Source: Blastocatellia bacterium
GTDB lineage: Bacteria; Acidobacteriota; Blastocatellia; UBA7656
Reading direction: 5' to 3'
Assembly: GCA_963726785.1 (NCBI GenBank)
Contig: CAVSDJ010000007.1
Span: 2,484,615-2,548,614 of the forward strand
DNA: 64,000 bases
The translations under genes and the position numbers were made by a program. The notes under the pieces are model-generated. The model was not told the DNA's origin. It saw nothing but the letters and a program-made list of their open reading frames with translations, and ran no database searches. Of this stretch, positions 7,071 through 26,360 are shown in pieces; the first letter of the stretch is position 1, and the number at the start of each line of letters is the position of its first letter.

Positions 7071-8102
7071 ATGCCACAAAGCCCTCCTAGCCGGTTCCCG
7101 GCATATATACAAACATCAGCCGACGCTGCGAAGTATCTTGCGCCGCATTGTGTGCCGCCGTTCTTTTCCGGCGACAGCTTTGCAAACGTTTTAAAAAGAG
7201 CAGAAGCGCTTCCGGCGGCTCTCTCGCTGAGTCATCTGTTTGAACGTCCTATAAATGTGGAGGCCCACCCCGTAGATTTTTTTCTATGGATTCCCGGCAA
7301 TGGCCGTCGCGACATTTTGGCCGGAGCCAGCGAAGGCATACCGGATGCTTTTTACGCACACAACTCCTGGAGGCGAATTCGTGATTTTGCCCGCGAGTGG
7401 ATGGACGAAGCCTCGCCTTTGCATGAAGTGCGTTCGTTTTGGCTAGAGTTCGACATTCGCGGCGTGCCCGAAGGCATTCCTGTGCCGTTGATCTTTTTCA
7501 CTGTTGAACAGAATCTATCACCCAAACCGGCGATTGAACTTTTGCAGGACAGACCTTTCGCTTCACCTCAGCTTGCAAACTTTCGCCGCTGCTGGGAAGC
7601 GATTCCTGACACGTGCCGCTATCGCACAGCAGGCATACTTTATTCGCGGCCCACTGACGCGATTCGTTTTATTTTGATCATGACGCCGGACGAAGCATTT
7701 CCTTATCTCGAACGCATCGGCTGGCCTGGCTCTGTCGTTGACCTCAACAAGCGATTCGAAAAGTTTTTTCGCTTTCATAATCAAGTGTCCCTGCACTTTG
7801 ACGTTCACCCGGAAGGCGTAGAGCCGCAAGTCGGCATGGAAATCTACGTTGATGAACCGGCAATGTATAAAGGTCGCGGCGGAGATTGCTCGCCCTTGCT
7901 TGATCTCGCCGTAGAGCAATCGCTTTGTCTGCCGGAAATTCGTGATGCGCTTGTCAAATGGCCCGGCTCGGACACATTTCAGCTACTAGACAATCAAGAG
8001 ATGCGCGTGGACCGAATGTTTCACCACATGAAGATAGTGAGCCGATCAGACCTCAGTCTTTATGCCAAGGCATACACAACCGCTGAGTACGAGGTTAGGT
8101 GA
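7071..8102 (+). CDS. putative peptide prenyltransferase (paralog of 25317-26360)
   Basis: Shares WLEFD, LHxD(V/I), G.E, H(I/M)KIV, AKAY motifs with 25317-26360; co-located with isoprenoid genes; function inferred. Confidence 0.55.
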   Translation: MPQSPPSRFPAYIQTSADAAKYLAPHCVPPFFSGDSFANVLKRAEALPAALSLSHLFERPINVEAHPVDFFLWIPGNGRRDILAGASEGIPDAFYAHNSWRRIRDFAREWMDEASPLHEVRSFWLEFDIRGVPEGIPVPLIFFTVEQNLSPKPAIELLQDRPFASPQLANFRRCWEAIPDTCRYRTAGILYSRPTDAIRFILIMTPDEAFPYLERIGWPGSVVDLNKRFEKFFRFHNQVSLHFDVHPEGVEPQVGMEIYVDEPAMYKGRGGDCSPLLDLAVEQSLCLPEIRDALVKWPGSDTFQLLDNQEMRVDRMFHHMKIVSRSDLSLYAKAYTTAEYEVR

Positions 8103-8957
8103 TGGCGACGGATTTGGCCCAAACAGATTGGTTTCGACTCCGCACGGTTGACATCGCTCAAGTGGACGAACTTGCAGAAACTCTCGATGACTTCGCGCGG
8201 CACGCCATTGATGCATTAGTGATTCGGAATGTATACACGGCTGATTACATGCAAGAGATCAGCAGGCGGATTGAATTGCACGATCCGCCTTTTTACATTT
8301 TCCCTCCCTTTGGCCCTCCCGAAGAAGTGAGGAAATACAAGCATCTTTACGGCGTCACCCTGGTGGCTACCGACCCGAAGTTGATTGAATATTTCAACGC
8401 GGCGAAGAGCTTCCGCAGAGCATTGTCGCGAACTCTTTCGCGATGGCGATGACTTTGAGGAGCGCATCCGCCACATCTTTTCTGTGCTTTCAGAAGGCCG
8501 CCCCGTCGTTCTTCCGAAAGCACAGGCCGGTCAAATCTATATGCCCGCCACGATTCGCATTCTGCCGGAGGGCTCGACCATAGATCTGCATTGTGATAAT
8601 AATCTCAGTCATCATCCCAACTATGATCACTTGAGAACCCTGTGTGATGTGAATAATCAATTGAGCTACTTCGTGACGATAAACGCGCCGGACGAGGGAG
8701 GCGAGTTGGTTATCTACCGGCGGCAATGGTCTGCCGGTGACGACGCGCTCAATCAATATGATATGAGAAAAGATGATTCGATGGTCGAAGATTACGAATA
8801 TTTCTCTGTAAAGCCAGAGCCGGGCGACCTGATACTTCACGCGGGGGGACGCGTCTATCACCGGGTGACGCAGACAATCGGCCCACGCACGCGACACACT
8901 ATCGGCGGTTTTGTGGCAAATGCTCTCGACAGCAATACATTGTATTACTTTAGCTAA
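8099..8957 (+). pseudogene. Fe(II)/2-oxoglutarate oxygenase split by a +1 frameshift near 8417 (real or sequencing error)
   Basis: ORFs 8099-8452 and 8385-8957 join as ...AAKSFR-EHCRELF... if one base is removed (TTC CGC A GAG CAT); HCD...GGEL...YHRV...R motifs. Confidence 0.75.
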
Positions 8958-8995
8958 GTATCGTTGCCCTGTTGAACTGACGAAAGGTCTGAATT

Positions 8996-9559
8996 ATGGA
9001 AGAGCTGATACTGGTAAACGAAAACGATGAAGAAATCGGAGTCGGCGAGAAGCTCCAAACTCATCGGGAGGGGAAATTACACAGAGCCTTTTCGATCTTT
9101 ATTTTCGATTCTGCCGGGCGACTCCTGATGCAAAAAAGGTCTACATCGAAATATCATTCCGGCGGCCTGTGGTCGAATACTTGTTGCGGCCATCCACGGC
9201 CCGGCGAAAAAGTCGAAATGGCTGCGCATCGAAGGCTGAAAGAGGAGATGAATTTCGATTGCTCACTTCAATTTTGTTCCAGTTTTATATACAGAGCGGA
9301 GCTTGATCACAACCTGATTGAATGGGAACTCGATCATGTTTTTGCCGGAGTCTACGATAACGACCCGGACCCGGATGAAGCAGAAGCTGAAGACTGGCAG
9401 TGGGTTGATGTGAATGATCTGAAAGCCGGAATAGAGACGCAGCCTGACAGGTTTACATACTGGCTGAAAATAGCTCTGAGCAAATTGAATCTGGCGGCAA
9501 TTGCTGGCCTCGCGGCAAACGAACAATCAGCGAGCAATCAAAAACAAAATAGTTTTTGA
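8996..9559 (+). CDS. idi: isopentenyl-diphosphate delta-isomerase type 1
   Basis: LHRAFSIFIF, LWSNTCCGHP, EWELDHVF, FTYW Nudix IDI motifs. Confidence 0.96.
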   Translation: MEELILVNENDEEIGVGEKLQTHREGKLHRAFSIFIFDSAGRLLMQKRSTSKYHSGGLWSNTCCGHPRPGEKVEMAAHRRLKEEMNFDCSLQFCSSFIYRAELDHNLIEWELDHVFAGVYDNDPDPDEAEAEDWQWVDVNDLKAGIETQPDRFTYWLKIALSKLNLAAIAGLAANEQSASNQKQNSF

Positions 9560-9567
9560 GCTAAACG

Positions 9568-10218
9568 ATGAGCCGATTGGTCTATCAATTCGGACTGCCT
9601 CGCAGCGGCCTGTACGCCGTCGCAGAGTGGTATATAGATGGCATCGGCGAAGCGTGCCAACATCGAATCGGCGGAGGCTTCAAAGACATCTACGCGAACG
9701 TCAGTGGTTCAACGTCTCACCTCGCTACCATTGAGGCGCTGTCAATCGAGAATGTGCAAGAGGGCCTCGCGCATTGTGAAAAGATTGGAGCAGAAACCTG
9801 GGTTCAACTCCGCGACCCGTATAACTGGCTCTCCTCTTTGCAGCAGGGAATTAATTCCTATGCCGTCGCGTGGCGACCCGATTCGCCTCTAGGTCTGTGG
9901 AAAGATTACGCTCGGCATTGTTTGAATTGTGCGTCCTATATCAACTACAACAGGTGGTTCAGCGACCCGAATTACAGGTGTGAATTGGCCGGGCGCTTCG
10001 CATTCCAACAGCGCCGCAATGGAGAAGCCTGGGAACATGTGCCCGGTAGAGGAGGCGGCAGTTCGTTTGACGGCGAGCGATTTGCGAATCAGGCTCAAGC
10101 AATGGCAGTGCTTGAGCGTTACGCGCGTTTTGTAGACGACGCTTCGTTCCGCGCTCAATTCGATGATGAAGTGATTGCGTTGGCCGAGCAGTTATTCGAC
10201 ATGAAACGGCCTTGGTGA
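9568..10218 (+). CDS. sulfotransferase-like P-loop protein
   Basis: GLPRSG (5'-PSB-like) and LRDPYNW (3'-PB-like) motifs. Confidence 0.5.
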   Translation: MSRLVYQFGLPRSGLYAVAEWYIDGIGEACQHRIGGGFKDIYANVSGSTSHLATIEALSIENVQEGLAHCEKIGAETWVQLRDPYNWLSSLQQGINSYAVAWRPDSPLGLWKDYARHCLNCASYINYNRWFSDPNYRCELAGRFAFQQRRNGEAWEHVPGRGGGSSFDGERFANQAQAMAVLERYARFVDDASFRAQFDDEVIALAEQLFDMKRPW

Positions 10219-10254
10219 GGTTGGCTCAAAACTCATAACGATTGGAGAACCTGT

Positions 10255-11880
10255 ATGAGCGTTTCATGGGGAGAGCAACTAGATCATTTATTTGCAAACT
10301 GGAACACGTCTGATAGTCCGGGCTGCGCTCTTGGGGTTTATCAGGAAGGCAAAACAGTCTACAAACGCGGTTATGGCATCGCGCATCTTGAGCACGACAT
10401 TGCTATAACTCCCTCGACCGTCTTTCATATAGCATCGCTTTCCAAACAGTTCACTGCGATGGCAATCGGTCTGCTGGCTCGTTCGGGTCACATTTCGCTT
10501 TCCGATGACATACGAAAATACATCCCTGAACTTCAGATAAGCTCTGCCATCACTTTTCGCCAGATCATCCATCACACCAGCGGACTCAGAGACCAATGGG
10601 ATATGCTGCGTCTGGGCGGCTGGCGCGATGCGGACATCAAGACGAACGGTGACATCCTGAGACTGGCAGCCTCTCAAAAGGAAATGAACTTCGCTCCCGG
10701 CACGCGCTTCCAATACATCAACACGGGCTATACGCTGATGGGCATAGCCATCAAACGCATCACAGGGAAATCGCTTCGCGAATATACGGATGAAAATATG
10801 TTCGAGCCTCTGGGAATGCGAAGCACCTTCTTTCACGACGATTATGGAAAGGTTGTAAAGAATCGAGCGCAGGCCTACTCTCGCAACAAAAGCGACCAAC
10901 TCCGTATAGACATGCCCGCGTATGAGACTGTAGGCCCGACAAATCTTTTTTCTACCGTGGAAGACTTCGAGCACTGGGAGCGAAATCTACTCTCGCCGAC
11001 CGTCGGCGACAAAGACTTTATCAAACAGATGCTAACGCCCGGCTCGCTTGATAACGGTCAGCCCGTGAGCTACGGCTTCGGGTTCATCACAGGCAATTAT
11101 CGAGGACTGGAAACCGCCGAACACGCTGGCGGAGATGCGGGTTATCGCGCTTACTTCCTTCGATTCCCTGAAGAGCGATTTGCGGTCGCAATCTTCAGTA
11201 ACTTTTCGAGAGTAAATCCGGGGCAACTTGCGCACGAAGTCGCGGACATCTGTCTGGCCGAACGCTTCAAAGCTGAAAGTTCAGACAATCAGGAGATTCC
11301 TGCGTGGGCCGGTCGCGCCGCGGGCATCCGAACGCCTCTCTCTGTTGATCTCGATGGCAAGAGCGGTTTGTACAGAGACAGCCTCAGCAGCATGACTTGC
11401 CGGATTGAATCTCGCGGAGGTCGCATCTTTCTTGATGCGAGTGCTGGCGGAGAATATGAGTTAGTCGTGGTCGAAGAGAATCATTTTCGGTTTCTCAATG
11501 CTGATGCGGAATGTCTCTTCACGCCTGCTACGGCAGATCAACCCGTGCGGATGACCGTCAAGTATGCGGGACAAGAGACGGCTCTGTGCGAACGCATTAC
11601 CGATGAAGAGATAGCGCCTGATTTCAGAGCCGACGAATACGCAGGAACTTACCAGAGCGAAGAACTCGATGTCCAATACACTATTGAACTGTCAGGCGAA
11701 GAGATTATTTTGCGGCGCGTTAAATTCGAGCCAAGCCCTCTTGTCTTATTTGCTAAAGATGAATTTTCGGCTAACGATGAAGGACTGCACATTCGCTTTG
11801 CGCGAGACGATGCGGGCCAGATCACAGGATTGACCCTCAATGCCGAACGGGTCTGGAATGTCCGCTTTGATCGCCTTTGA
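10255..11880 (+). CDS. serine hydrolase, beta-lactamase/D-aminopeptidase family, with C-terminal beta domains
   Basis: SxxK (IASLSK), YxN (QYIN), HAG motifs; no evident signal peptide. Confidence 0.88.
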   Translation: MSVSWGEQLDHLFANWNTSDSPGCALGVYQEGKTVYKRGYGIAHLEHDIAITPSTVFHIASLSKQFTAMAIGLLARSGHISLSDDIRKYIPELQISSAITFRQIIHHTSGLRDQWDMLRLGGWRDADIKTNGDILRLAASQKEMNFAPGTRFQYINTGYTLMGIAIKRITGKSLREYTDENMFEPLGMRSTFFHDDYGKVVKNRAQAYSRNKSDQLRIDMPAYETVGPTNLFSTVEDFEHWERNLLSPTVGDKDFIKQMLTPGSLDNGQPVSYGFGFITGNYRGLETAEHAGGDAGYRAYFLRFPEERFAVAIFSNFSRVNPGQLAHEVADICLAERFKAESSDNQEIPAWAGRAAGIRTPLSVDLDGKSGLYRDSLSSMTCRIESRGGRIFLDASAGGEYELVVVEENHFRFLNADAECLFTPATADQPVRMTVKYAGQETALCERITDEEIAPDFRADEYAGTYQSEELDVQYTIELSGEEIILRRVKFEPSPLVLFAKDEFSANDEGLHIRFARDDAGQITGLTLNAERVWNVRFDRL

Positions 11881-11893: not shown

Positions 11894-14006
11894 TCAGTCG
11901 TCTGACAATGGGCTGATCCTCACTTCCAACCCGCTGCCGAAAGGGCCTTCGCCATTTTGAAGCTGCCACAGGGAAGCGTAAAGACCTTCCTGTGCGAGAA
12001 GCTCTTCGTGATTGCCCTGCTCGCGAATCTTTCCTCTTTCGAGAACGAGAATTTTATCGGCGTTGCGAATCGTGGATAACCTGTGAGCGATCATGATCAC
12101 GCTCCTTCCTGTCGCGGCATTTTGGAGCGATCTTTTTACTGCGGATTCAGTTTCATAATCAAGGTGCGAAGTCGCTTCATCAAGAGCCAGAATCGGCGCT
12201 CCTTTCAACAACGCTCTCGCGATTGCCACGCGCTGTCTCTCCCCTCCCGATAGAAGTCGCCCGCGCTCTCCCACTTCGGACTCCAAGCCGCTGGGCAAGG
12301 ACGTGAGCATACCCAGTGCGCTTGCGTCGCGCATCGCGGAAATGATTCGCTCTTCGGAGGCGTGGGGCTGGCCGTAGGTCACGTTTCCCTGCACAGTTCC
12401 TTGAAATAAATATACATCCTGACTGACCCAACCTATGGCCGCTCGCAGGTCTTTGAGATTCATCGTTCGGATGTCCTTGCCATCTAAAAGTATTCGCCCT
12501 GAGTCAATATCGTAAAAGCGCATGAGAAGGCGCAGCATTGTGCTTTTGCCGGAGCCTGTCGGGCCTACGATGGCGAGCGTTTCGCCGGGTCGCAAGTGGA
12601 AGGAGACGTTTTCTAAAACTTTCACAGAAGGAAAATATCCGAAAGTGACATCATCAAAGACTATCTCTCCGCGCACTGTGCTGGCAGGAAGAAGGATCGG
12701 GCCGCTGCGGATTTTCGGACGAGAATCCAGGATTTCTGTCAGACGCTCTGCTGAATGAGTTGCGCCATAATACAGTCTGGTGAGTTGTTCAAGCCCCATC
12801 GAGAGAGCCCATCAATTGTGGAAACCAGTAAACAACTCGGAGGTATTCGCTCGGCGACATTCTTCCCGAAGCAAGCAGTTGGCCCCCATACCAGGCCGTC
12901 AATGTGAATCCGCTGAAAAAGATGCCTTGAGCAAGGTGTGATTGGATCGATGCCACGACTTCGGCTTCCATTGCGGCTTCTTCCAAGCGCAAATTGCTAT
13001 CGTGCAATCGGCGCGTTTCCTGCCGCTCGCCCGTGAAGCTCTTTACATCGGCAATGCCTGCGAGATTGTTTTCGAGCTTCTGATTATACTGGCTAGACAT
13101 TTCTCCCAGGCGGGCATAACGCTCGGCGGCTACTCGTCCAAAAAAACGAGAGGACAGCAGAATGAAAGGCAAGGGCAGGCAAGCGAGAATCGCGAGCCTC
13201 GGCGATGCGCTGATTAGAAAAGTGCTGGCGACGCCTATGGTCAGTGATTTCTCGATAACCTCGTCGCCCGCTTGTTCGACGAAACGTTTGATCTGCGCCG
13301 TGTCTTCTGTGACGAGATTGATGAGCGAGCCTGTATTATGGTCGTTGAAAAACGACAAGTCCTGACCTTGAATTCGCGCAACCAGTCTGGTGCGAAGTCT
13401 GTGCTCGGTCGCGCGGGCAAGCTTTCGCCATGCCTTCCTCCGCTTATACTGAACCCATAAATCTGCGCAGGTTAAAAACACACTCAGGCCGCTCATGAAG
13501 GCAAGGCGGGAACCCGTTTTGACCAGGCCCAAAGTTCGCAAGAAGCCCGGCCCCTCTCCTCTGGCCGTGTTCACTGTCCCGATGAAAGAGAGACCTTGTA
13601 GTATGTGAAGCGAATGGCCCAGAACAGATAAAGCAGGTGGGGCGATTAGCTCTTCACGTTTCGGAAGAGAGGATTTGAGGATGCGTGTTAAAGCATTCGA
13701 TTTTTTCGCAACTCTGATTTCAGAAAACTTGCGGTGAGAAAGCCTTTGCAGATTATCGCGGAGAAGCGATTCTACGTTAAGGTCGGAATATTCGGGAGAG
13801 TAAGTAACAAGAACTCTGCCTGATACGGGATTGGCGCGAACATCTAAAACGCCCGGATGTTGCAGGATGGCTTTTTCCAACTCCTGCGCCAGGTCTGGCC
13901 TTCTTAGTAAAGCCTTCACCTCCCAGCGTTCTCGCCCGCGTGTTGCAGACCTGAGGCGCATCTGATACGGGTCAGTCATTGAGGCATCTTTCTTATCGTT
14001 TATCAA
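11894..14006 (-). pseudogene. ABC exporter (N-terminal HMA2-like domain + TMD + NBD) split by a +1 frameshift in a G4 run at 12794-12797
   Basis: ORF 12789-14006 (TMD) and ORF 11894-12799 (GPTGSGKST, LSGGERQR, LDEAT) fuse as GSLDG-LEQL if one G is removed. Confidence 0.8.
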
Positions 14007-14236
14007 CTTCTCTTCTGGTCTTCCTGTGAAAGTTCCTCAGTGGCTTCGGCTGCTACGTCCTCTAAATCCTCCATGGCCTGCTGTGAAATCTCTTTGAGTT
14101 TGCGCCCGGCTCGGATGCCTGTCTTGATGCCTTCTTTAGCCAGTCCTCTCCAATACCGGGCAAGAACTACTCCTGAAACAACACCAGCCAAAAGCCCTCC
14201 GAAAAAAGGCAGTTTATTACTTTTGTCTTCATTCAT
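14003..14236 (-). CDS. small membrane protein (GxxxG helix + amphipathic helix; DUF5132/DUF1490-like)
   Basis: FGGLLAGVVSGVVL followed by LAKEGIKTGI..., E.LED.AAEA; translationally coupled to the ABC gene. Confidence 0.65.
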   Translation of the reverse strand: MNEDKSNKLPFFGGLLAGVVSGVVLARYWRGLAKEGIKTGIRAGRKLKEISQQAMEDLEDVAAEATEELSQEDQKRS

Positions 14237-14260
14237 ATAGTTTCTGACCGATTGAGAGAA

Positions 14261-14734
14261 TCAAGTTTCCTTATTCGTCTTCGACGACGAAGGCCTCTTT
14301 TTGGATGAGGGCTGCCTTCTCTTCGCAGCGCTTTGAGGTAGAGAATAAGCAGACTGGGAACTATCATCTTTTACCGCTCCTGTTTGGGAAACCGGAGGCG
14401 ATTGAGTAGTGAGAGCAGACTGGGAACTATCAGATGCTTTTATCTCAGTGTAGCCATCTTGATGGCTACACTGCTCTTCCTTCTTTTGGCCGATTCCCAG
14501 CCCGAGGTGTTCGTGGATGTGACGACCAGTCGTGGCTTTCGTAAACGAATTGGCAGAGACCGCAATCAAACCGGGAAGACCGAACATTGATCTGGCGATT
14601 AAACCCAGCGCAACATGAATCGCGCCTTGCGCGAGATCACCTTCTACAAGGTTGCTTCCACCCGGCAAGATATATTCGCTGGCAAGCTTAGCACTATTCT
14701 TCAGAGGCTCAAGTTCCTCCGCTTCGTTCTTCAT
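14261..14734 (-). CDS. small hydrophobic protein, paralog 2, with low-complexity S/Q/K tail
   Basis: PGGSNLVEG..QGAIHVALGLIARSMFGLPGLIAVSANSF shared with 14772-15050; GGAG RBS. Confidence 0.75.
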   Translation of the reverse strand: MKNEAEELEPLKNSAKLASEYILPGGSNLVEGDLAQGAIHVALGLIARSMFGLPGLIAVSANSFTKATTGRHIHEHLGLGIGQKKEEQCSHQDGYTEIKASDSSQSALTTQSPPVSQTGAVKDDSSQSAYSLPQSAAKRRQPSSKKRPSSSKTNKET

Positions 14735-15050: not shown

Positions 15051-15159
15051 CTTTTTTTGCCTCCTTAAGTTTGGTGATGACTTGTGAATCAATTACGTCC
15101 GATGCGTGTGACGCTACTTGCTGGAATCGTGACGCAAATAACATACGATGCCCCTCAGT

Positions 15160-16638: not shown

Positions 16639-19600
16639 TCACTCCCACGCCAGAACGCAGGGCAAGCTTTGCGGATGGGCGATTCTCAAAAGCTCGAAGC
16701 CGATTCCTGAAAGCCCTTGAAAGAACGAAGGGTCGAAGAAATCCTTTCCCGGCTGACCCGACAGCCTGTAACCGCCCGACCTGCGCGCGCGCTCCACAAC
16801 AACGGAAGCCAGTTCAACGACTTGGCGTTGCAACTGCTCATCTGCACTCTGTACTGATGCGGCAAGCATCATGTCCACTCTGCCAAGATTGCCGCAGCAC
16901 AATCCATCTTTCTCTCCTATCGGAGATTCTGTGACCTTTTTGAGAGCCGCGTTGATGTCCTGCCTGACTTCGTGTGAATCGAAGAGCGGCAGGCCGGACA
17001 TGCGAGCCAGTCCTATCCCTGCTGCGCCGTGACACCATGCGTTCATAAAGACGGAGCGATCATTCGACGAGTAACGAAAGTCTGGCCAGTTATTTTCAGT
17101 GGCATCGAATACCGAATCCTCGAACTCTATGGCTTTCTGCGCCGCCCAGTGGAATCGTTCTTCGCCTGACGCTTCGGACAGCCGCAGCAACGCAAGAGCG
17201 ATACCCGCAGCTCCATGAGAAAATCCCGTCATGAACTTGCCGTTTATCGCGCGCCACGATGCGCCTTTTCCGGCAGACTCTTGTTTTTTGAGCAAGTGAT
17301 CTCCGCAAAGCACAGCTTTTTTCACGACCGCAGAATCTCTCGTTGCTTCGTATAATGTCAGCAGCCCCAGAATCGCCCCGGCTGCTCCTGACATAGTATC
17401 GAAATTATTGTCAGCGGCTATCCATTCGGGCGTGATTCGTTCAGATGCCATGACCGCATCGGCAAAGAGCGCAGGCTCTTCAAGCAACACCGCGCACCGG
17501 CTTAGGCCGTAGATGAAAGAGCCGACCCCTGTCGCTATGCCGAGGTTGTATCCTTCGCGAATCATTCGAGTAGGGTCTGCCGTAGAAACAAATCTCCGCA
17601 ATGACCGAAGAGCGGAAAGCGATGTGCGACGACCAGTGTCCTGCACACGCTCCATGGCAGCAAAAAACAGCGCGACTCCTGCAATGCCATTGTATAAATC
17701 CATTCGCAGAGGACGCAGTTCGTGATGACTGGCGTGCGGTAGAAGCTGGGGCGCAATCCATGTGACTTCGTCGCGAAAGAAAATGGCGCGGCTCTCGATC
17801 TCTGCGGCTATGGCATTTGCTTCTGCGATCAGTTCGTCTGAGGTAAGCAATGAGATTTCATCCGGACTCCAGCCTTGGGCGGTTTCATCTGAGGCAGACT
17901 CATGCCCGACGGAAATGGACGAGACGCGCAACGCGGCTCGGATGAAGCCTGTCTGCATATCCATATCAGCCCGGTCGAATGATGCGAGCCTCTGCCGCAC
18001 ACGGTCGAGCGCCGTATCTTCAAAAACATTTTCCAAAGCATTGCCTGTTGGCAGAAAGAGAGAACGGCTGTTGGCAAGCACTGTAAATCGCGGAATGTCG
18101 AGCCGCTCCATCGCATCCACTTCGGCCTTTAGCAGAGGCCACAGCCGCGACTTATCCGAAGATTCAAGATAGAAGCGGCTGAAGACATCCGTTTCGATGC
18201 TGCGTTCAACACCGCTCCTCATATAGCGCGGGGCATACAACTTCTTCAGCAGCAAACCTGAGATGCGCGTTGCGTGAAAGAGTATTCGTATCTCTTGTTT
18301 TCCGAGCGCATCTATTAGCCCATCGGGAGCCGTCAATTCTTCTCTGAGTTCCATAAGCAATTCGTACATGTGACGGAACCCGGAGACTATCTCTTCTGCG
18401 TATTCGGCGGCTGTCAGCGAGACGGCGTTCAAGTGAGGAAGATGTTTTTCGGAGTCTACAAAAATCGGCTCATGCTTAAGCGACATGGAATCGGTGTTGA
18501 CGTTTTTCCAAACCCTCTTTTGATAAGGCGTGAGCTGACCTGCTTTCGCGCCAAGTCCGCTGATGTCTACACAAATCCCATTCTGACCGGCTTCCCAGAA
18601 TGGCAGAAAGCCCGCGCGGAATACAGAGGCAAACATTATGTTATCGGCCACTTCATTAGCGGGCGAAAGGTCAGCGCCGCGTCGAAGTGCGGGGCGCATG
18701 AGAGTCTCCATGTCTATAAGAACCGGGTAGCCTCCGCAGGCTATGATGTTCTCGTAGAAGCAATCAGAAGCTTCCAGCGCGTAAAGCAGGCAAGCCGTCA
18801 TGCCTGCGCGATAATAAAACTTTTTCGCTTCGTCACTATTATTACAATCGGCGTACTGCGCGACTTCCACCCATCCGTGACTTCCCCTGTCCAGCACTTT
18901 CAAAAGTCGGAAATCGCCGCCGCGTTTGTTGAGATGCTCAAGCAGAGAAAACCATGCTTTTTCAATACCGAGGGCGCGCGGTTTATGGACTAACTTCAAT
19001 CCGCTTTCAAATTCCAGAATGGTGACCGTGCGCCCCTCATTGTGTCTATCCGAAAGCGATGGATGCACAGCAACAACTCTTTCGACCTCTTCGCTATCAT
19101 TGAATACTTTTTGAATCGCTGGCAAATCAGCTTCCAGCGCGCAGGCCATCTCAGAGACGTTTCGCGCCCAGAGTTGCACAGTGATGGAAAGCAGGCGGGC
19201 CAGCACGGGGTATTCGGAAAAAAAATTCCAGAGCCTTCCGGCGAGCAATCCGGTCGCAAATTTTTCGTAAAGCCCTGTTTCATCGCGAGCCGCCTCTTCA
19301 GTGTATCCATGCTCCGAACGAAAGACTGAAAATTCCAGATAGAAGGTCGGGGCCGCGATGTGACTCAGTTCTCGCAAGAGATCGTCCGTCAGTTTAGCGA
19401 GAATCTCCGGCGATAAAAGTAAACGACAAGAGGGCGCGAGCATCCCGAAGCCGGTCTTTGCGAAAGGGAAGAGGATTGCCTCAAACGGATGGCCGGATGG
19501 CTTTGAAGCTTCGATCATTGTTGGCGCGGCATCCATCGCTTCGATGAACACTAGCGCCCATTGCGGAAACTCGCCTTCAAGGCGAACTTTTCCAAGTATG

Positions 19601-19809
19601 TTGAAAACTTTTTCCGGTGTGGTATCGAGCCAGGAGAGTCGTTTCTCGAATAGATTTGAGTTATTTAGCGCGGCCCTTTCACTCCATCTTTCAAACCGGG
19701 CCTCTGCCAGTCTTGCGCTGTCGGTATCAAGTTCTGGTACGTAAGAACCTTCGAGGCGTTCCCAGAGAGTCGAGGCATCAGCCACTATCTGGCGCAAAAA
19801 GTTGCTCAC
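16639..19809 (-). CDS. lanM: class II lanthipeptide synthetase
   Basis: DUF4135 dehydratase (SDRHNEG, HKPR, DxxYEN, IDMETL) and LanC cyclase (GFSHGAAG, WCHG, LCCG, FFQGLSG). Confidence 0.95.
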   Translation of the reverse strand: MSNFLRQIVADASTLWERLEGSYVPELDTDSARLAEARFERWSERAALNNSNLFEKRLSWLDTTPEKVFNILGKVRLEGEFPQWALVFIEAMDAAPTMIEASKPSGHPFEAILFPFAKTGFGMLAPSCRLLLSPEILAKLTDDLLRELSHIAAPTFYLEFSVFRSEHGYTEEAARDETGLYEKFATGLLAGRLWNFFSEYPVLARLLSITVQLWARNVSEMACALEADLPAIQKVFNDSEEVERVVAVHPSLSDRHNEGRTVTILEFESGLKLVHKPRALGIEKAWFSLLEHLNKRGGDFRLLKVLDRGSHGWVEVAQYADCNNSDEAKKFYYRAGMTACLLYALEASDCFYENIIACGGYPVLIDMETLMRPALRRGADLSPANEVADNIMFASVFRAGFLPFWEAGQNGICVDISGLGAKAGQLTPYQKRVWKNVNTDSMSLKHEPIFVDSEKHLPHLNAVSLTAAEYAEEIVSGFRHMYELLMELREELTAPDGLIDALGKQEIRILFHATRISGLLLKKLYAPRYMRSGVERSIETDVFSRFYLESSDKSRLWPLLKAEVDAMERLDIPRFTVLANSRSLFLPTGNALENVFEDTALDRVRQRLASFDRADMDMQTGFIRAALRVSSISVGHESASDETAQGWSPDEISLLTSDELIAEANAIAAEIESRAIFFRDEVTWIAPQLLPHASHHELRPLRMDLYNGIAGVALFFAAMERVQDTGRRTSLSALRSLRRFVSTADPTRMIREGYNLGIATGVGSFIYGLSRCAVLLEEPALFADAVMASERITPEWIAADNNFDTMSGAAGAILGLLTLYEATRDSAVVKKAVLCGDHLLKKQESAGKGASWRAINGKFMTGFSHGAAGIALALLRLSEASGEERFHWAAQKAIEFEDSVFDATENNWPDFRYSSNDRSVFMNAWCHGAAGIGLARMSGLPLFDSHEVRQDINAALKKVTESPIGEKDGLCCGNLGRVDMMLAASVQSADEQLQRQVVELASVVVERARRSGGYRLSGQPGKDFFDPSFFQGLSGIGFELLRIAHPQSLPCVLAWE

Positions 19810-20990
19810 CGGGTCTCTTCCACCTCCAGAAGACCATCACGAACCAGTCGCCGCGCCAGCACGAGCTTTTCTCGTTCAGTAAGATCACCTGCTATAGAAC
19901 GAACAGAGAACGAACGATGCTGGGCGACATAACGGAGAGCGGGGGCGATTTTTTCAGGCCCCAGAAGTTTCCCGCCTGAATATTGAATGGCCGCGTAGCC
20001 CGGCCCTTCGAGTGCGCGGCAAATCACTCCCTTGCGCCGCACGAGCACCGTATCTATGTCGAGTTCGGCCTCTTTTGCAAGCAGGTCGTCGCCGGGTGGA
20101 GGCGGGCTTTGAACGATCAATTTTTCCGCGAGGCGACCCATGCCATCATCAAGGCTCAAGTATTGCGGCAATGCGGCGAGCAATTCAGGAAACAGATCAT
20201 GCAATTCATTCGCTTTGTTGAGAAATCCCGGCGGCAAAGCCTTCCTGAACCTTTTGTCGTTTCTGGCAGCAGAGACTGCCGCAGAAAAAAGATCTATCCA
20301 CGTGACGACGTTCACACCAATCGTCAGATGCAGTGACGCAGCGCCGGTCGTGCGGGCCGCGTGAATGTATCCGCGAGGCAGATAAAGAACACTGCCTTCT
20401 TTCAGTTCTTCCTCTAGCACAATTTTTGAAAGGCTATCTTGAGGCAAGTCAGAGTGTTCGTCCCGAAGCGGCAATTCTTTTGCAGGTTCTCGCACCTCCC
20501 AGATTTTGCTTCCTTCCAACTGGAGGACAAAAACATCCATGATGTCGAAGTGAGGATTGAATGCCTGCGTGCCGGGCGGCGTGTAATACATGTTGACATT
20601 GAGCGGGTGGTGCAGGTCTTCTTGAAGAGCGGCTGCAAACAGCGCGACAGGTTCCCACAACTTGCCCAGATCATTGACGACGATAGTGTAACCGTCACGC
20701 ACAGCCGCGCTCACTTTTTCCAGGCGCGGCGACCCGTCCGGATTAGTCCAGTTGCTGTCATTATGGCGACTGCCTTTAATCAGCACCAAATCTTCAGGAG
20801 GGCCGGGTCGCAGGTAATGCAAAAGCCGCCCGATGTCGGCGGACGAAAACAGATGCGAGAATCGCCCCTCGTTGCCTGAAACCGCAAGCGGGCGCTTCTC
20901 CCAGTATTCATCTGAAAACTGCGATGGCGTGATTGGATAAATCAGTTCTGCCAGGCTCATTGATTGCGTCCGTTTCGTGTGGCTTTTCAA
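19806..20990 (-). CDS. JmjC/Cupin_4 (ROXA/NO66-like) 2OG oxygenase
   Basis: F..EYWEKRPL, Y.TPP, PHFD, LQLEGSKIW, YLPRGYIH, SLHLT; C-terminal winged-helix-like region. Confidence 0.88.
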   Translation of the reverse strand: MKSHTKRTQSMSLAELIYPITPSQFSDEYWEKRPLAVSGNEGRFSHLFSSADIGRLLHYLRPGPPEDLVLIKGSRHNDSNWTNPDGSPRLEKVSAAVRDGYTIVVNDLGKLWEPVALFAAALQEDLHHPLNVNMYYTPPGTQAFNPHFDIMDVFVLQLEGSKIWEVREPAKELPLRDEHSDLPQDSLSKIVLEEELKEGSVLYLPRGYIHAARTTGAASLHLTIGVNVVTWIDLFSAAVSAARNDKRFRKALPPGFLNKANELHDLFPELLAALPQYLSLDDGMGRLAEKLIVQSPPPPGDDLLAKEAELDIDTVLVRRKGVICRALEGPGYAAIQYSGGKLLGPEKIAPALRYVAQHRSFSVRSIAGDLTEREKLVLARRLVRDGLLEVEETR

Positions 20991-22240
20991 GCCAGCGTCA
21001 GCAGCCCTGTACGCACCAGCCTTCGGACAAGTATCAACTTTTCGTTGTCGTTGAGCGAACCCGGCAAAGAGGCCGGTGTGATGGTTTCAGCATCAGCTAT
21101 GTGCCGCAGAGCATCAATGATTTTCGCGGGGCCGAGTAGCTGATTCCCCGAGAACTGAATCCCTGCTACTCCGTTTTCCTCAAACACTCTGGCTAAAGTT
21201 GTGCGGCGCTTTCTCAAAAGCGTGTCGGGGCCTATAGCTGCGTTCAACACGGAGAAGTGCCCGTCAGCGGGCGGCGGATTTCTGACGGCGAGTACCTCGG
21301 TGTGCTTGCCCACAGCATCTTTGTGATTCGCCTGACTATGGAATATGTCCATAAATTGGCTGAACTCGTTTGCGAGAGATTGCATTACTGTTTCGTCATT
21401 CAAGAAACCAGCGGGCAGAGAACGACGAAATCGCGGATCACGTTCAGCCATAGCGGCCAGCGCGTCGTAGAGAAAATCGAACCATGTGCGAACGTGCACA
21501 TCAACTGTGATGTGCAGCGAAGGCTTATCGCCCGCCATGCCTTCGTGCACGAAACCTCTGGGTATATACAACGCGTCGCCCGGATTGAGAACTGTTTCGC
21601 AAATCGGCTCTGACAGCTTTTCTCTGGGCACGGGAGCATACGAGCCTTCGACGGGCGGAAACTCATGCAAAGGCTTGTATACCTTCCACTGCTTTGAGCC
21701 TTCGACCTGAAGCAGGAAGTTTTCCTGCGTGTCATAGTGAGGTTTGACGCCGTGAAAGTTCGGCGGCGATAAGTAAACAGCCATGGCGATTGGATGATTC
21801 AAGCATCCTTCCAACGCTCGCGAAAACAGAGTGAGCGGTTCCCAGGTCTGTTCCAGCCCGCTCAATATGACAGTGCTTCCTTTAAGGTAGCTTTCGATCA
21901 CCAGATTGACATTAGCCGTGCCGTCGCTGCTCAGAAAGTTATCGCGGACAAAGCCCTCTTCAGTGACAAGATCAAGTCGTCCGGGTTTGGGTTTGAAATA
22001 GCAGATCGCTCGATCAATATCATTGATGGAGAAAAGCGGAGTGAAGAATTCAGCCGGTCTTCCCTTGCTTACGAGCGGGCGCTTCTCCCAGTATTCCGCG
22101 AAAAACTTCTCCTGCGTCAGCGGAGCTATGATGTCTTCAAACCTGATCTCTTCGGCGCTCTTGATACCGATTTCCTGGCGCTCGAAAATCTCTGTCTCTT
22201 CCTGGTCTAGGGCTGTCATCTGTTCCTTGCTCATGGACAC
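20987..22240 (-). CDS. JmjC/Cupin_4 (ROXA/NO66-like) 2OG oxygenase, paralog
   Basis: FFAEYWEKRPL, PHYD, LQVEGSKQW, YIPRGFVH, SLHIT. Confidence 0.88.
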   Translation of the reverse strand: MSMSKEQMTALDQEETEIFERQEIGIKSAEEIRFEDIIAPLTQEKFFAEYWEKRPLVSKGRPAEFFTPLFSINDIDRAICYFKPKPGRLDLVTEEGFVRDNFLSSDGTANVNLVIESYLKGSTVILSGLEQTWEPLTLFSRALEGCLNHPIAMAVYLSPPNFHGVKPHYDTQENFLLQVEGSKQWKVYKPLHEFPPVEGSYAPVPREKLSEPICETVLNPGDALYIPRGFVHEGMAGDKPSLHITVDVHVRTWFDFLYDALAAMAERDPRFRRSLPAGFLNDETVMQSLANEFSQFMDIFHSQANHKDAVGKHTEVLAVRNPPPADGHFSVLNAAIGPDTLLRKRRTTLARVFEENGVAGIQFSGNQLLGPAKIIDALRHIADAETITPASLPGSLNDNEKLILVRRLVRTGLLTLA

Positions 22241-22255
22241 CTGCCTCCTGAAGCG

Positions 22256-23179
22256 TCACTCTGCATCCCAAGAGCGGCTGTAAACCAGCGGCGTCATGGG
22301 GCCTTCTGCTCGGTCTCCGGCCCGAAGTCCCGGCAGCGAAGTTGTGCGGTTTTGCTGGCGGATCATTCTTGCGTAAAACTCTTGAGGCGGAGCGCCGGGT
22401 TTCAAAGGCGCGTCTTCGGCCAGTCGCGCTCCATCGGCGAAGTAGACTATCACCATGGCTTCTCGCATGCGCGGAGACGTGTTTGTGCGAGAACTGTGCA
22501 GAGTCCACGCAGAGTGTACCGCCACATCTCCAACTTCAAAGGCCCCATAGTTGAAAACCTCGAAGCCTTTTGCGCGCACCTCGTCTTCAAACCGATCCAT
22601 CGAAGCGTCGTCGCCGTTAGAAGTTCCCATATAGCCCGCCCTGTTTGATCCAGTGACATAATTCATAGGCGCAAGGTCGGGCGTGATGTCCGTCAGCGGA
22701 ATCCACATGGTCAATATTTTTTCGCTATCGAGCGGCATGAAGTATGCGTCCTGATGCCAGGGCGTATTGGCTCCGTCAGGCCCTTTGAAATAAGACTGGT
22801 CACGAAACAATCGCACGGCTTCCACTTGCATGAGATCGGCTGCTATCCGGCCAAGACGTTTGCTCAATACGAACCGCCGCGCTGCCTCATCCAACGTCCA
22901 CAGGTTGTTTACGAACTTCCAATTCTTTCCAGCCCCTGCAACCTTCTGCTCCATCGCATGATTTTGTGTGCTGTTGTCATCAACAACCCGCCCCAGATGA
23001 TGGCGATAGGCTTCGATCTCTTCGGGAGTGAAGACCCCGTTGAGCTTGATGTGGCCGTCACGAAAGAAGCTTTCGATCTTCTCGTGTGTGAGCGTGTAGT
23101 TGCCGGAAATTTCTGGAAGCTGCTCGGCTGCGGCTTGTGCATTCATTGATATTTCCTCTCCCGCATGTGTTGTTGACAT
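22256..23179 (-). CDS. phytanoyl-CoA dioxygenase (PhyH) family Fe/2OG oxygenase
   Basis: TPWHQD, WIPLTD, HSAWTLHSS, R motifs. Confidence 0.88.
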   Translation of the reverse strand: MSTTHAGEEISMNAQAAAEQLPEISGNYTLTHEKIESFFRDGHIKLNGVFTPEEIEAYRHHLGRVVDDNSTQNHAMEQKVAGAGKNWKFVNNLWTLDEAARRFVLSKRLGRIAADLMQVEAVRLFRDQSYFKGPDGANTPWHQDAYFMPLDSEKILTMWIPLTDITPDLAPMNYVTGSNRAGYMGTSNGDDASMDRFEDEVRAKGFEVFNYGAFEVGDVAVHSAWTLHSSRTNTSPRMREAMVIVYFADGARLAEDAPLKPGAPPQEFYARMIRQQNRTTSLPGLRAGDRAEGPMTPLVYSRSWDAE

Positions 23180-23216
23180 TTTTTCTTCCCTTCGCTACTC
23201 GCTTCGATTGTATCAC

Positions 23217-24008
23217 TCAAGCGCCGCATCGAAAGACCACAGGATTCAGCGGCCCTTCCGCGAGGTCTCCCGAACTCAGCCCGGCGAAGTAAGTGTCTAG
23301 AAAACTTCGGACGATGGGCGCGCCTCCGCGCTCCAGGATGCGCGTGCCGTCAGCGTAGTAGCCTATAGTGATAACCTCTCGCATGTGTTCGCTTGAATTA
23401 CCCAAAGATGAATGAATCGTCCAACCCATGTGCAGCGAAGCGTCGCCCGCCTGCATAGCTCCGTGTTGCACAATTGGAAATCTCTCCGCATCTTTGCGCG
23501 GTATCAACTCGCCGGACAGGTGCGAGCCTTCGGCGAATAACAAGCCTCCCATATCCGGAGTAATGTCTGTTAGGGGTATCCATATAGAAACCATCTTGTC
23601 GGTATTCAACGGTATATAAGTAAGGTCTTGATGCCAGGGCGTGCCGGGGCCGCCGCCGGGTTTGAAAAAGCCGGAAAAATGCAAAAGCCTGACAGCTTCA
23701 ACGCCCAGAACGCGCGCGGCTATTTCGCCAAGACGCGGTGATGTCACTAGATCCACGACCGATTGCGGAGCCGTCTTAAGACTGAAGATAGTCTCGATGG
23801 GACTTGCGCCGACCGCTTGTTCATTTGCGCTCATGACTTCGCGTCTTGCCATGACATAGTCGCGAAGAATTGGACGGTGATGATCTAATTCTTCGCGCGA
23901 TAGAACGCCGCGAAGAACTCCGCAGCCGCGCCGTCGGACTTCCTCTATCTGAGAGTCTGCCAGGTGATATTTGCCATCAATCGTCATCTGTTCAGCTTGT
24001 TGAGCCAT
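23217..24008 (-). CDS. PhyH family Fe/2OG oxygenase, paralog
   Basis: TPWHQD, WIPLTD, HMGWTIHSS; start MAQQ after AGGAGG. Confidence 0.88.
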   Translation of the reverse strand: MAQQAEQMTIDGKYHLADSQIEEVRRRGCGVLRGVLSREELDHHRPILRDYVMARREVMSANEQAVGASPIETIFSLKTAPQSVVDLVTSPRLGEIAARVLGVEAVRLLHFSGFFKPGGGPGTPWHQDLTYIPLNTDKMVSIWIPLTDITPDMGGLLFAEGSHLSGELIPRKDAERFPIVQHGAMQAGDASLHMGWTIHSSLGNSSEHMREVITIGYYADGTRILERGGAPIVRSFLDTYFAGLSSGDLAEGPLNPVVFRCGA

Positions 24009-24240
24009 CGCCCCTCCTGGCAAAGTCGAGATTGGTGAAGGGATCAGCAAAGATTTATTGTTTAATGCTCCCCTCGCTCAGCGAATCGGGCGCGCCGCTT
24101 TTAGAGTGCAGGTTGCTGTAGCCTGATAAGCCAATCTTCGTATTAAAAGTAACATTATGCAGATTGAAGCGCGGAAATTAGGATAGTCCAACACAGACTT
24201 GAATGCAACTTATTTTACTTTCATTTTCGTCATCAATCGT

Positions 24241-25320
24241 TCAAGCGAACATCGAAATTTCCTGCAGGGCTTTTAAGACTGTGGCCGTCGTGTAAACGCC
24301 GAAATGATCGGGAGAATAATTATTGAAGGTGTGCTTTAAAACGCTCTCCATCGAAACTGGTCCGGCGGGTATGCCAGCCCACATAGTCCAATCCGACTTC
24401 GGGTCCGGGTTGAGGCTGTCAGGGCGCGGAACGCGAAGCCTTGCAGACGCAGACCACGAGCCGTCGGGCTTTTGCCATTCGACAAGCCGGGCTACTCCTC
24501 TGGAAAGACTGTTGCGCGCCTCTGCGAGATGATTTGTCCGGGCCAGGATGCGAAGAGCATGAGCGAGAGCAAAGGCGGGCGGGAATCGACCTTCAGTTGC
24601 AATAAGAATATCAATACGACCGAGCGCCCAGAGCGCGGCTCGTTCGATGCAGGAAGCGATTTCAGCTTCGCAGTCCATTGCCGTTCGCCCTTTTCCGGCA
24701 AGAGCCGCCACGGCCTCAGCCGTCGCATACTCATCGTCGAACCACCAATAGGCGATCCACTTTCCATCTTCAGATTGTTTCTCTAAAAGGTATTGGCGAA
24801 ACCGCTCGCGGTAACTGTCCATATTCGCGCAGGCTGCCGTGACGCAAACGTGCGGCTGCGTCCAGCCTCCGAATGGAACAAAAGGCGGAAGCCCTATGTA
24901 GTTGCGCACAGGAGCCGCTGACGCATAAGTGGTGAGGCCGCCATCATCGCGAATGTGCCGCTCAATAAATTCGGCGGCTTTGAGCGCAGACTCCGATTCA
25001 TTCGCGTTGAGGCTCTCGGCAAGTCGAAGCCCCCAGAGCGTGCTATCGGCATCGCCGGGCACTTGAGGGTTGTAACTCCAGCCGCCGTCCGGCGTCATAA
25101 CTTTTTCGAGGAATCGCCATCCGGCACGCGCGGCGTTGCGCGCTTCTTCTTCCGGCCTGACAGCCAGAACATCGCCGACGTAGGCAGTAACCCAGACGTT
25201 GCTGTTACCGGCAGGAAGAAGAAAGTCCTTCCACGCTCCCTGGCCGTCTTGAGATTTCAAGAGAAAATCCAGAGCAGCTTGCACCGCTCCTGAAAGATTG
25301 ATTCCGGTATCGGCTGTCAT
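24241..25320 (-). CDS. prenyltransferase/squalene-oxidase-repeat protein; probable monodomain class II terpene cyclase
   Basis: QW repeats (QDGQGAW, QSEDGKW, QKPDGSW), GGWSY..PGDADST acidic motif at the DxDD position. Confidence 0.75.
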   Translation of the reverse strand: MTADTGINLSGAVQAALDFLLKSQDGQGAWKDFLLPAGNSNVWVTAYVGDVLAVRPEEEARNAARAGWRFLEKVMTPDGGWSYNPQVPGDADSTLWGLRLAESLNANESESALKAAEFIERHIRDDGGLTTYASAAPVRNYIGLPPFVPFGGWTQPHVCVTAACANMDSYRERFRQYLLEKQSEDGKWIAYWWFDDEYATAEAVAALAGKGRTAMDCEAEIASCIERAALWALGRIDILIATEGRFPPAFALAHALRILARTNHLAEARNSLSRGVARLVEWQKPDGSWSASARLRVPRPDSLNPDPKSDWTMWAGIPAGPVSMESVLKHTFNNYSPDHFGVYTTATVLKALQEISMFA

Positions 25321-26360
25321 TCAGATTTCCCTAATGTGCGATGGGCAATTCCGAAATATGCTTTTGCCGCCGGGTCTGCACCGGGGCGAAGTACGATCTT
25401 GATATGACTCAGGCCGCGAAGCAAGAGGCTTTCACGCCCGTTTAAAGAAATGCTCTGATGGCCGATCCAGTCTAGCAGAGCCTGTTTTTTTTCAGGCGCT
25501 AATAAACCAAACTCTGAAAGCTGATCGAACTGACCATACCATCGCGGCTCTCTGCGCGGCTGGCGAGACCAGCAGCCTGCCACAAAATTAGGCTCTACGC
25601 CGATATGCGGATAGACCCGCTCCCCAATATCCAGATGCAAGCCGATGAAGTCGGCATGCGGGCGAAATGCATCCATGTATTTTTGCAATTCATCAATGGG
25701 GCCTTCCCATCCGATTTTATCCATAAAGGGAAGCAGTTTATCTTTCGGGAGATCGAAAATACAAAGCCGAATGACCTGAATATTGCGTGCCAGCATTACT
25801 CCGACTTGAAAATCGTTCGTCTCCACAGGACACGCTTCGAGGCATCTTAGAAAATTTTGCTGCAAAGACTCAGAGACCGAATCCCCCAGCAACATTGGAA
25901 TGATAGTACCCGCGAGCCATTCGGGGGGGCGCTTTATCTCAACGTCACGCGGCCAATATCCAAACAAAAGATTTGGCGCAGGCAGCTCCGACGACATGTC
26001 AAACTCAAGCCAGGTTGCTCCGGCATCACTGTATGGAGGCTGACGTGTATCGCCCCACTCTTTATAGAAGCTCTGTATCTTTTCCCACGGGCCGTGTTGC
26101 AACTGCTCTGGCGGAGAAATTGAATGCCTGCCCGCGAGCATTCTGGCTCCGTCCGGCGTCAGGTTCAGCGCGCAGTCGGTTGGTCCAATGCCCGCTCCCA
26201 ACCTGCACTCAAACCCGAAAAAATCTACGGCGAAGATGGGCAGCGCCTGAGCCACTTTCCTTATGTGGGCGAAGCTTTCAGCAGACATCAACACAGAATG
26301 CATATGATCCTTGACCATATCCAAGGATGTATCGAGTCTTCGCGTAATCTCGTCTTGCAT
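25317..26360 (-). CDS. putative peptide prenyltransferase
   Basis: FGFECRLG, WLEFD, GLHLDIG, LSHIKIV, AKAYFG; lies between precursor and cyclase, overlapping the cyclase start by 4 nt. Confidence 0.6.
   Translation of the reverse strand: MQDEITRRLDTSLDMVKDHMHSVLMSAESFAHIRKVAQALPIFAVDFFGFECRLGAGIGPTDCALNLTPDGARMLAGRHSISPPEQLQHGPWEKIQSFYKEWGDTRQPPYSDAGATWLEFDMSSELPAPNLLFGYWPRDVEIKRPPEWLAGTIIPMLLGDSVSESLQQNFLRCLEACPVETNDFQVGVMLARNIQVIRLCIFDLPKDKLLPFMDKIGWEGPIDELQKYMDAFRPHADFIGLHLDIGERVYPHIGVEPNFVAGCWSRQPRREPRWYGQFDQLSEFGLLAPEKKQALLDWIGHQSISLNGRESLLLRGLSHIKIVLRPGADPAAKAYFGIAHRTLGKSE

Follow-up and report, generated by a model that had tools for sequence, protein, structure and literature searches.

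Two divergent putative prenyltransferase genes in a lanthipeptide cluster

The DNA analysed here (the window) comprises 64,000 nucleotides from the Blastocatellia bacterium assembly GCA_963726785.1 (contig CAVSDJ010000007.1, positions 2,484,615 to 2,548,614 of the forward strand). It holds a 23-kb class II lanthipeptide cluster, recognised by a LanM synthetase above its model cut-off and by precursor cores with Ser/Thr and Cys, and within this cluster lie two open reading frames (ORFs), hereafter PT-A and PT-B, that encode the putative prenyltransferases with which this work is concerned (Table 1). PT-A heads a run of genes on the same strand, where it is followed by a WelO5-like oxygenase gene, an isopentenyl diphosphate (IPP) isomerase gene (idi), a sulfotransferase-like ORF and a serine hydrolase gene. 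Its stop codon overlaps the start of the oxygenase gene, and the end of PT-B overlaps the start of a terpene cyclase gene by 4 nt. No other members of the family were found in the 8.9-Mb genome, and among named relatives, Blastocatellia assemblies come closest (95% and 89%).

A preliminary description of this DNA had presented the two ORFs as paralogs sharing five motifs, and this was borne out: BLASTP aligned their products end to end with 99 of 339 positions identical (29%; 105 bits, E = 2e-30, against a maximum of 25.8 bits in 100 shuffles), and all five motifs are in register (PT-A/PT-B numbering: WLEFD 124/117, LHFDV/LHLDI 241/241, GME/GVE 255/254, HMKIV/HIKIV 319/319 and AKAY 332/332). 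The family had also been called unannotated, which stands in so far as no library model covers it. Neither protein matched a model of Pfam or NCBIfam at E <= 0.01, a sequence search of the PDB gave nothing significant with either of them or with a 99-row profile, and sequence membership in the DMATS (Trp_DMAT), NphB/Orf2-type and cyanobactin F-family groups was not found, the ESM Atlas returning weak leads (0.89-0.90). However, with 4519 clusters at 50% identity the family is a large one, and it very probably includes the characterised enzymes NctPC and MppC, a placement based on fold, architecture and context.

An ABBA-like barrel had been guessed from the start, to be checked with AlphaFold and Foldseek and to be given up if the fold proved unrelated to prenyltransferases and no donor gave activity; as regards the fold, the comparison showed a clear relationship. 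The AlphaFold2 models of PT-A and PT-B alike (pLDDT 94.3, pTM 0.92) contain ten strands in alpha-beta-beta-alpha (ABBA) repeats, as in an antiparallel barrel. In a wide VIA structural search of 48,161 representative chains, ranks 1 to 19 for PT-B were all ABBA prenyltransferases, with Z scores from 16.2 down to 11.2 and the next match at 5.6; the best one had a root mean square deviation (rmsd) of 4.6 Å over 311 aligned residues. The best match of PT-A, obtained in a second-look search, was MpnD (Z 15.2, rmsd 4.5 Å, 291 aligned), and Foldseek agreed with VIA for both proteins. According to these models, PT-A and PT-B almost certainly adopt the ABBA prenyltransferase fold. The barrel is the same as in DMATS-type indole prenyltransferases (MpnD, CymD, PriB, 5-/6-DMATS, FgaPT2; Z 14-16) and, at slightly lower scores, in the cyanobactin F-family (PagF, LimF, PatF; Z 11-12.7), while the structural alignments with both groups show 6-13% identity and an rmsd of 4-5 Å, with no profile match.

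PT-B forms the core of the cluster type with the cyclase

The coupling of one prenyltransferase to the cyclase, already proposed for this locus, proved to be general for PT-B. Among 18 genome loci found with a PT-B alignment, the cyclase gene lay directly behind PT-B in 16, the contigs of the other two ending inside PT-B, and a precursor gene lay directly before it in 16. The cyclase is a beta-only domain with the DxD motif (as defined in PMC12324236), and each of the 18 distinct motif strings that the loci yielded has DxD. Moreover, three fusions of a prenyltransferase with an MstE-like domain were found among the best 150 family members. One of them, P0155, has 40% identity with PT-B and 46% with the cyclase; it falls inside the PT-B clade (support 100/99). 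Members fused in this way are P0155, P0208, P0262 and P0386, along with P0269, P0270, P0272 and P0273 from Nostoc, and another prenyltransferase-cyclase fusion was read from locus L101. In one genome (G106; L008/L071) the cluster consists of precursor, PT-B and cyclase only, no other cluster gene being present in the 10 kb before or the approximately 18 kb after; no LanM is near this minimal three-gene form. PT-B is thus the core enzyme of the cluster type.

The precursors are short (approximately 39-54 amino acids (aa) overall), and their leaders keep only an acidic ELTDEQL...AEG segment. In an alignment of 19 of them, which left out one further variant (AEGMSSWGAGC), the ELTDEQL/AEGS leader segment, a Trp, the Gly that follows it and the last Cys were invariant. 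This Trp is the likely acceptor, since it is the only conserved aromatic residue of the core, and it is very likely that PT-B and the cyclase act on it.

PT-A is an optional module with a WelO5-like partner

The occurrence of PT-A was evaluated in 21 genomes with PT-B, that of the window and 20 others, all of them chosen through PT-B. PT-A was intact in seven, deleted in one and not found in 13. When 201 genomes were sampled evenly from the family of G112, four had PT-A and seven had PT-B, the former four all being among the latter seven. No gene of the PT-A clade was found in 400 other genomes of the phylum, where two distant family matches were the only ones, and a metagenome scan for PT-A yielded one short locus from 137 candidates. 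PT-A was found only inside this cluster type, in 7/7 genomes in which both genes were located, from Acidobacteriota and Myxococcota, and its position within the cluster varies. These results identify PT-A as an optional, distinct module of the cluster.

The constant neighbour of PT-A is the WelO5-like oxygenase gene, which stood directly behind all eight intact PT-A genes read (the window and L093 counted). An independent search for the oxygenase recovered it in 7/20 genomes, six times behind an intact PT-A and once behind a deleted one; in the latter (G107, L104:2159-2506) an internal deletion leaves the first ~40 and the last ~25 residues of PT-A, and the oxygenase gene is intact. The oxygenase carries HCD, in every copy read, where solved WelO5 homologs have HVG. 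An HxD triad is the iron motif of hydroxylases, whereas HxG/A is that of halogenases and leaves a site for chloride, and halogenation by this enzyme was therefore rejected.

In the window, an extra base near 8417-8426 shifts the frame of the oxygenase gene. The gene is a single ORF in 4/4 relatives read, and at this site a close strain has one contig, of low depth, that is in net terms one base shorter, so that the frameshift is likely to be an assembly error or a private mutation.

The preliminary description had taken idi, on the same strand behind PT-A, to argue for dimethylallyl diphosphate (DMAPP) as donor, and this argument was not upheld. The window, G104 and G110 contain both genes, while four genomes with PT-A (G112, G116, G197, G261) gave no match to a type-1 idi and three clusters (G102, G103, G105) have idi and no PT-A. 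For these reasons idi was rejected as a marker of a DMAPP donor.

Divergence of the two clades and the putative lining of the barrel

The PT-A and PT-B clades are each fully supported and each span two phyla, which excludes a recent duplication within the genome. They stood apart in a 304-row FastTree; a sister relationship was not rejected in a 50-row approximately unbiased (AU) test (p 0.78, the constrained tree scoring higher), and the two clades came together with a support of 87/80, unstarred, in a 32-row tree in which long-branch and redundant rows had been left out. The stem branch of PT-A is long, with 1.2 changes per site. PT-A is under purifying selection, its ratio of nonsynonymous to synonymous changes (dN/dS) being 0.119 in comparison with L064, among values of 0.065-0.155 for other genes of the cluster. 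All 17 members of its clade keep the putative catalytic residues E58, D69, E126, D128, R193, R199, D244, E257, R315, H319, K321, K333 and Y335. The residues that are invariant in both clades (R, K, K, Y, E and D) occupy alternating strand positions and could form the diphosphate and acidic site.

This alternation around the invariant polar residues was used to assign 25 positions as facing inwards, and the residue volumes at these positions were added up as a lining volume. Three further candidates were set aside, two for alignment gaps and one for breaking the alternation. The hydrophobic fraction was 0.23 at the assigned inward positions and 0.90 at the alternate ones. The lining volume was 3636 +/- 53 Å3 in the PT-A clade (17/17 rows complete), 3067 +/- 22 Å3 in the PT-B clade (79/81), 3155 Å3 in six fusions and 3244 +/- 105 Å3 in other members (147/169). 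The putative lining is thus approximately 570 Å3 bulkier in the PT-A clade than in the PT-B clade, while the alternate face is nearly equal (4613 vs 4551). From PT-B to PT-A, six lining positions change (G49>M, A64>F, G134>T, C200>I, G337>T, A339>E), and the small residues at these positions are common to PT-B and, for the most part, to the fusions. The simplest reading of this pattern suggests that the donor pocket is narrower in PT-A and spacious in PT-B, which provides a new argument for the division into a long-chain and a short-chain enzyme that had been put forward initially. PT-A is probably active with a shorter donor.

Other members of the family combine the prenyltransferase domain in various ways. 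Tandem prenyltransferase domains (P0131, P0149, P0163) and fusions with Fe(II)/2-oxoglutarate (Fe/2OG) oxygenases (P0138, P0145, P0161) indicate that both of these pairings recur in the family. An N-terminal helical domain precedes the prenyltransferase in P0152, P0200 and P0203, and a methyltransferase-like domain is joined to it in P0202. In addition, 116/169 other family rows carry a 17-residue insert (88 of them with WPxx[LFIM]) that is missing from PT-A and PT-B, with their short-leader precursors; as a guess, this insert may hold the leader-binding element of MppC formed by W336 and F340.

Relation to known systems

The closest known systems are NctPC and the mpp cluster. NctPC, in which an ABBA prenyltransferase and an MstE-like domain are fused, geranylgeranylates Trp and then cyclises the product (PMC13290415), MstE itself acting on a C20 chain (PMC12324236); prenyltransferases of RiPPs (peptides made on ribosomes and modified after translation) of the NctPC/MppC type share the ABBA fold and show low likeness to those of cyanobactins (PMC13290415). 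The mpp cluster of Moorena producens PAL (MppC, MppD, MppM, MppG and MppE; PMC12715784, PMC11791876, bioRxiv 10.64898/2026.10.04.756588) has a separate prenyltransferase and a terpene synthase beside LanM, and its final product is still cryptic (PMC12715784, PMC11791876). MppC prefers geranyl diphosphate (GPP, C10), geranylates the Trp indole at C5 and is leader-dependent (PMC12715784, PMC11791876).

The cluster in the window has in common with NctPC a barrel dissimilar to those of the cyanobactin enzymes, an MstE-like cyclase and a Trp in the peptide, and it differs in that prenyltransferase and cyclase are separate genes, in a leader of approximately 30 aa, and in the presence of a second, divergent prenyltransferase with a WelO5-like oxygenase. 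The ABBA fold of this type of enzyme is predicted for both proteins, and PT-B is coupled to the MstE-like cyclase and to a Trp precursor, while PT-A does not adjoin the cyclase. With the mpp cluster it shares the class II lanthipeptide type, a Trp within the ring (predicted here), a stand-alone ABBA prenyltransferase, a separate terpene synthase and an Fe/2OG oxygenase. There, however, one prenyltransferase uses GPP on indole C5 and needs a 77-aa Nif11 leader through W336/F340; here there are two prenyltransferases, five Fe/2OG enzymes, a B12-dependent radical S-adenosylmethionine (SAM) enzyme, own genes for isoprenoid supply, and short precursors whose leader lacks a structured part, in place of the long structured Nif11/NHLP leader of the MppC type. 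No row named Moorena appeared among the 120 listed of 392 matches when MppC was looked for, and the exact W336/F340 pattern had no match among 385 proteins. Two cyanobacterial plasmid clusters (L078, L079) contain distant family members beside LanM and precursors of the Nif11/NHLP type.

Since the NctPC architecture and the mpp cluster follow the same logic, the terpenylating core is of a known kind, and the new element is the putatively size-specialised second barrel with its HxD WelO5-like partner. Neither a lanthipeptide cluster with two prenyltransferases nor this type of precursor was found described in the literature searched; the papers that mined the family may list them.

A further parallel exists outside the ribosomal peptides. 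In fungal indole-diterpenes, the prenylation and cyclisation of the core are followed by late prenylation by DMATS-type enzymes and by oxidation. The likeness lies in the long-chain prenylation of an indole, its cyclisation, the addition of C5 by a second enzyme and oxidative tailoring, all of them proposed for the present cluster; the fungal pathways differ in using a small-molecule indole and other enzyme families for the first steps, and involve no peptide.

Other genes of the cluster

Table 1. Genes of the cluster, with positions in the window
Feature	Position	Strand	Annotation and remarks
Precursor peptide 1	4536..4658	-	40 aa from METKE; leader ...ELTDEQLQQLAEG, core SCSWGANCHG
B12-radical SAM RiPP C-methyltransferase	4747..6798	-	TIGR03975, 773.6 bits (cut-off 281.85)
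PT-A	7071..8102	+	343 aa; optional prenyltransferase of predicted ABBA fold, bulkier barrel lining, predicted short-chain donor
WelO5-like Fe/2OG oxygenase, HCD motif	8099..8957	+	PF22814; ORFs 8099-8452 and 8385-8957
Type-1 IPP isomerase (idi)	8996..9559	+	NF002995 and TIGR02150 above cut-off
Sulfotransferase-like ORF (lead only)	9568..10218	+	216 aa; ESM Atlas feature score 0.96; no Pfam match
Serine hydrolase (beta-lactamase/D-aminopeptidase-like) with DUF3471	10255..11880	+	Pfam, NCBIfam
ABC exporter, N-terminal HMA-like domain	11894..14006	-	Pfam; two ORFs here
DUF5132 and two DUF6072 small proteins	14003..15092	-	Pfam
S41 peptidase, candidate leader protease	15160..16635	-	PF03572; putative role
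Class II lanthipeptide synthetase LanM	16639..19809	-	TIGR03897, 836.6 bits (cut-off 304)
Two JmjC-type Fe/2OG oxygenases	19806..22240	-	PF08007
Two PhyH-type Fe/2OG oxygenases	22256..24050	-	PF05721
MstE-like monodomain class II terpene cyclase	24241..25320	-	GDAD (DxD); MstE E 2.7e-56
PT-B	25317..26360	-	347 aa; core prenyltransferase of predicted ABBA fold, coupled to cyclase, predicted long-chain donor
Precursor peptide 2	26529..26651	-	40 aa from MESKQ; core SCTWGANCGS
trans-Polyprenyl diphosphate synthase	26795..27859	-	PF00348; geranylgeranyl diphosphate (GGPP) synthase models below cut-off

The cleavage site of precursor 1 was placed by resemblance to the double-Gly leader motif. The polyprenyl synthase has A/S at five and four residues before DDxxD, which we take, following the usual chain-length rule, to suggest a product of C20 or longer. 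A tblastn search of the genome gave no copy of idi other than this one. The ABC exporter, split here in two frames, is a single ORF of approximately 690-705 aa in the relatives L067 and L069, and the small DUF5132 and DUF6072 genes travel with it. In the ESM Atlas cluster matched by the sulfotransferase-like ORF, 43% of the members carry PF00685; ORFs of this type occur in clusters with and without PT-A, and in L094 a different sulfotransferase-like ORF, judged by eye, follows the WelO5-like gene. ORFs resembling FAD-linked oxidases, also by eye, occupy a variable slot in L106 (3898-5802, 634 aa) and L094 (12822-15392, 856 aa). A second homolog of the B12-radical SAM enzyme lies approximately 58 kb before the window (G000:C7:2424955-2426763; 31% identity over 638 aligned residues). 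A promoter and terminator scan remained at chance level. Sequencing runs cover small shares of the stretch, and one RNA run gave two 151-nt contigs within the WelO5-like gene, which is not enough to demonstrate expression.

Proposed pathway and alternative explanations

The pathway that we propose draws on homology, gene order, co-occurrence, residue conservation and purifying selection, the fold being predicted and the catalytic steps, with their donor lengths, sites and order, all inferred. LanM would link Ser/Thr3 and Cys8 by a thioether, closing a ring around Trp4, and the polyprenyl synthase would provide a long donor, probably C20. PT-B would ionise this donor and alkylate the indole, and the acid of the cyclase DxD motif would protonate the distal alkene and trigger a cation cascade leading to a polycyclic terpene. 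PT-A would place a short prenyl group, probably C5, on another carbon of the indole or on a newly introduced hydroxyl, and the HxD WelO5-like oxygenase would hydroxylate the terpenoid or close a ring on it. The JmjC, PhyH, radical SAM and sulfotransferase-like enzymes would tailor the product further, the S41 peptidase or the serine hydrolase would cut off the leader, and the ABC exporter would secrete the product. That PT-B and the cyclase build a polycyclic diterpene on Trp and PT-A adds a second C5 unit is a reasonable possibility, somewhat short of being probable, and its weakest link is that prenylation should be additive rather than alternative.

Several observations weigh against this proposal. 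PT-A has neither gene nor remnant in 13 of the 21 PT-B genomes, although several of these assemblies are fragmented; the oxygenase may work without PT-A, as its gene is intact in G107 after the loss of the latter; and the occurrence of idi does not follow that of PT-A. In this genome, frameshifts are read in the genes of both the oxygenase and the exporter. The neighbouring cyclase is no proof of a C20 donor, because MppC uses C10 beside a terpene synthase. The inward positions derive from strand alternation, not from coordinates, and a filled PT-A barrel could mean a different acceptor or lost donor binding; its narrowed interior may also reject a bulky acceptor. Finally, with one Trp available, PT-A and PT-B could compete instead of adding. 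A predicted complex of PT-A with precursor 1 scored 0.02, with a mark of 0.32; this gives no verdict and was used neither way.

Competition of this kind, or a preference of each enzyme for one precursor, would produce a congener prenylated with C5 or C10 next to the one bearing the cyclic diterpene, and the WelO5-like enzyme would tailor one of the branches. It would be in keeping with a core that has a single conserved aromatic residue, with the two precursor copies that flank this cluster, with the optional nature of PT-A, and with the bulk of a polycyclic Trp, which may not fit the narrowed barrel. However, the PT-A clusters of L060, L094 and L096 show one precursor gene in the DNA read, located before PT-B, and PT-A was never found without PT-B (4/4), which a stand-alone alternative enzyme would not need; we regard this possibility as unlikely.

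PT-A might also have ceased to prenylate, its barrel being repurposed to present the terpenylated peptide to the WelO5-like oxygenase or to carry out other cation chemistry on the terpene. The long stem branch, the bulky residues that replace Gly residues found family-wide, the stop/start overlap with the oxygenase gene and the frequency of prenyltransferase-2OG oxygenase fusions in the family all agree with such a role. The conservation, in 17/17 members of the clade, of the family-invariant acidic, basic and Tyr residues that a diphosphate/cation site would be expected to have and the persistence of the oxygenase where PT-A is deleted speak against it, and make it quite unlikely.

A third alternative concerns PT-B, which could take a shorter donor, GPP as in MppC or farnesyl diphosphate (FPP), so that the cyclase product would be mono- or bicyclic and the two prenyltransferases would differ mainly in the site modified. 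MppC indeed geranylates indole C5 though its cluster has a terpene synthase, and in the myxobacterial clusters the only synthase-like gene is a distant one that matches in part (33-35%). Nevertheless, of the four groups PT-B shows the smallest putative lining volume on average, similar to that of the fusion in its clade (3061 vs 3027 Å3), small residues precede the first DDxxD of the cluster synthase, and MstE works on a C20 chain (PMC12324236), so that a shorter donor appears distinctly improbable.

WelO5 acts on small indole terpenoids, the best structural matches of PT-A are small-molecule enzymes of the DMATS type, and the position of the module in the cluster varies, all of which would suit a pair serving a separate small molecule (free Trp, indole or a phenol) as mere cargo of the cluster, but this is very improbable given that PT-A was found nowhere but in this cluster type, in 7/7 genomes of Acidobacteriota and Myxococcota in which both genes were located, and that PT-B yields the same structural matches.

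The pathway with sequential action of PT-B, the cyclase and PT-A would in its full form amount to a ribosomal counterpart of the fungal indole-diterpenes, i.e. a Trp held in a lanthionine ring and bearing a polycyclic diterpene plus a second prenyl group, attached by two size-specialised barrels that stem from an ancient duplication, with an HxD WelO5-like oxygenase oxidising the terpenoid or closing a ring on it. We put this forward tentatively, as the complete picture is rather doubtful.

Significance

The class of terpenylated lanthipeptides is young, few of its enzymes have been characterised, and the cluster type described here is conserved across Acidobacteriota, Myxococcota and Alphaproteobacteria. 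PT-A is carried in records of Stigmatella aurantiaca, Cystobacter fuscus and Myxococcus dinghuensis, and the Sphingomonas rustica cluster is without it; these named species therefore offer natural plus and minus controls. Besides, a precursor of 40 aa should make the system easy to rebuild in Escherichia coli, and the work could yield a peptide prenyltransferase that functions with a short leader. The PT-A/PT-B pair allows a direct test of what determines donor length in a large family that lacks a library model and, if the reading proposed here is true, the swap of six lining residues would represent a natural donor-length switch for this family of some 4500 clusters.

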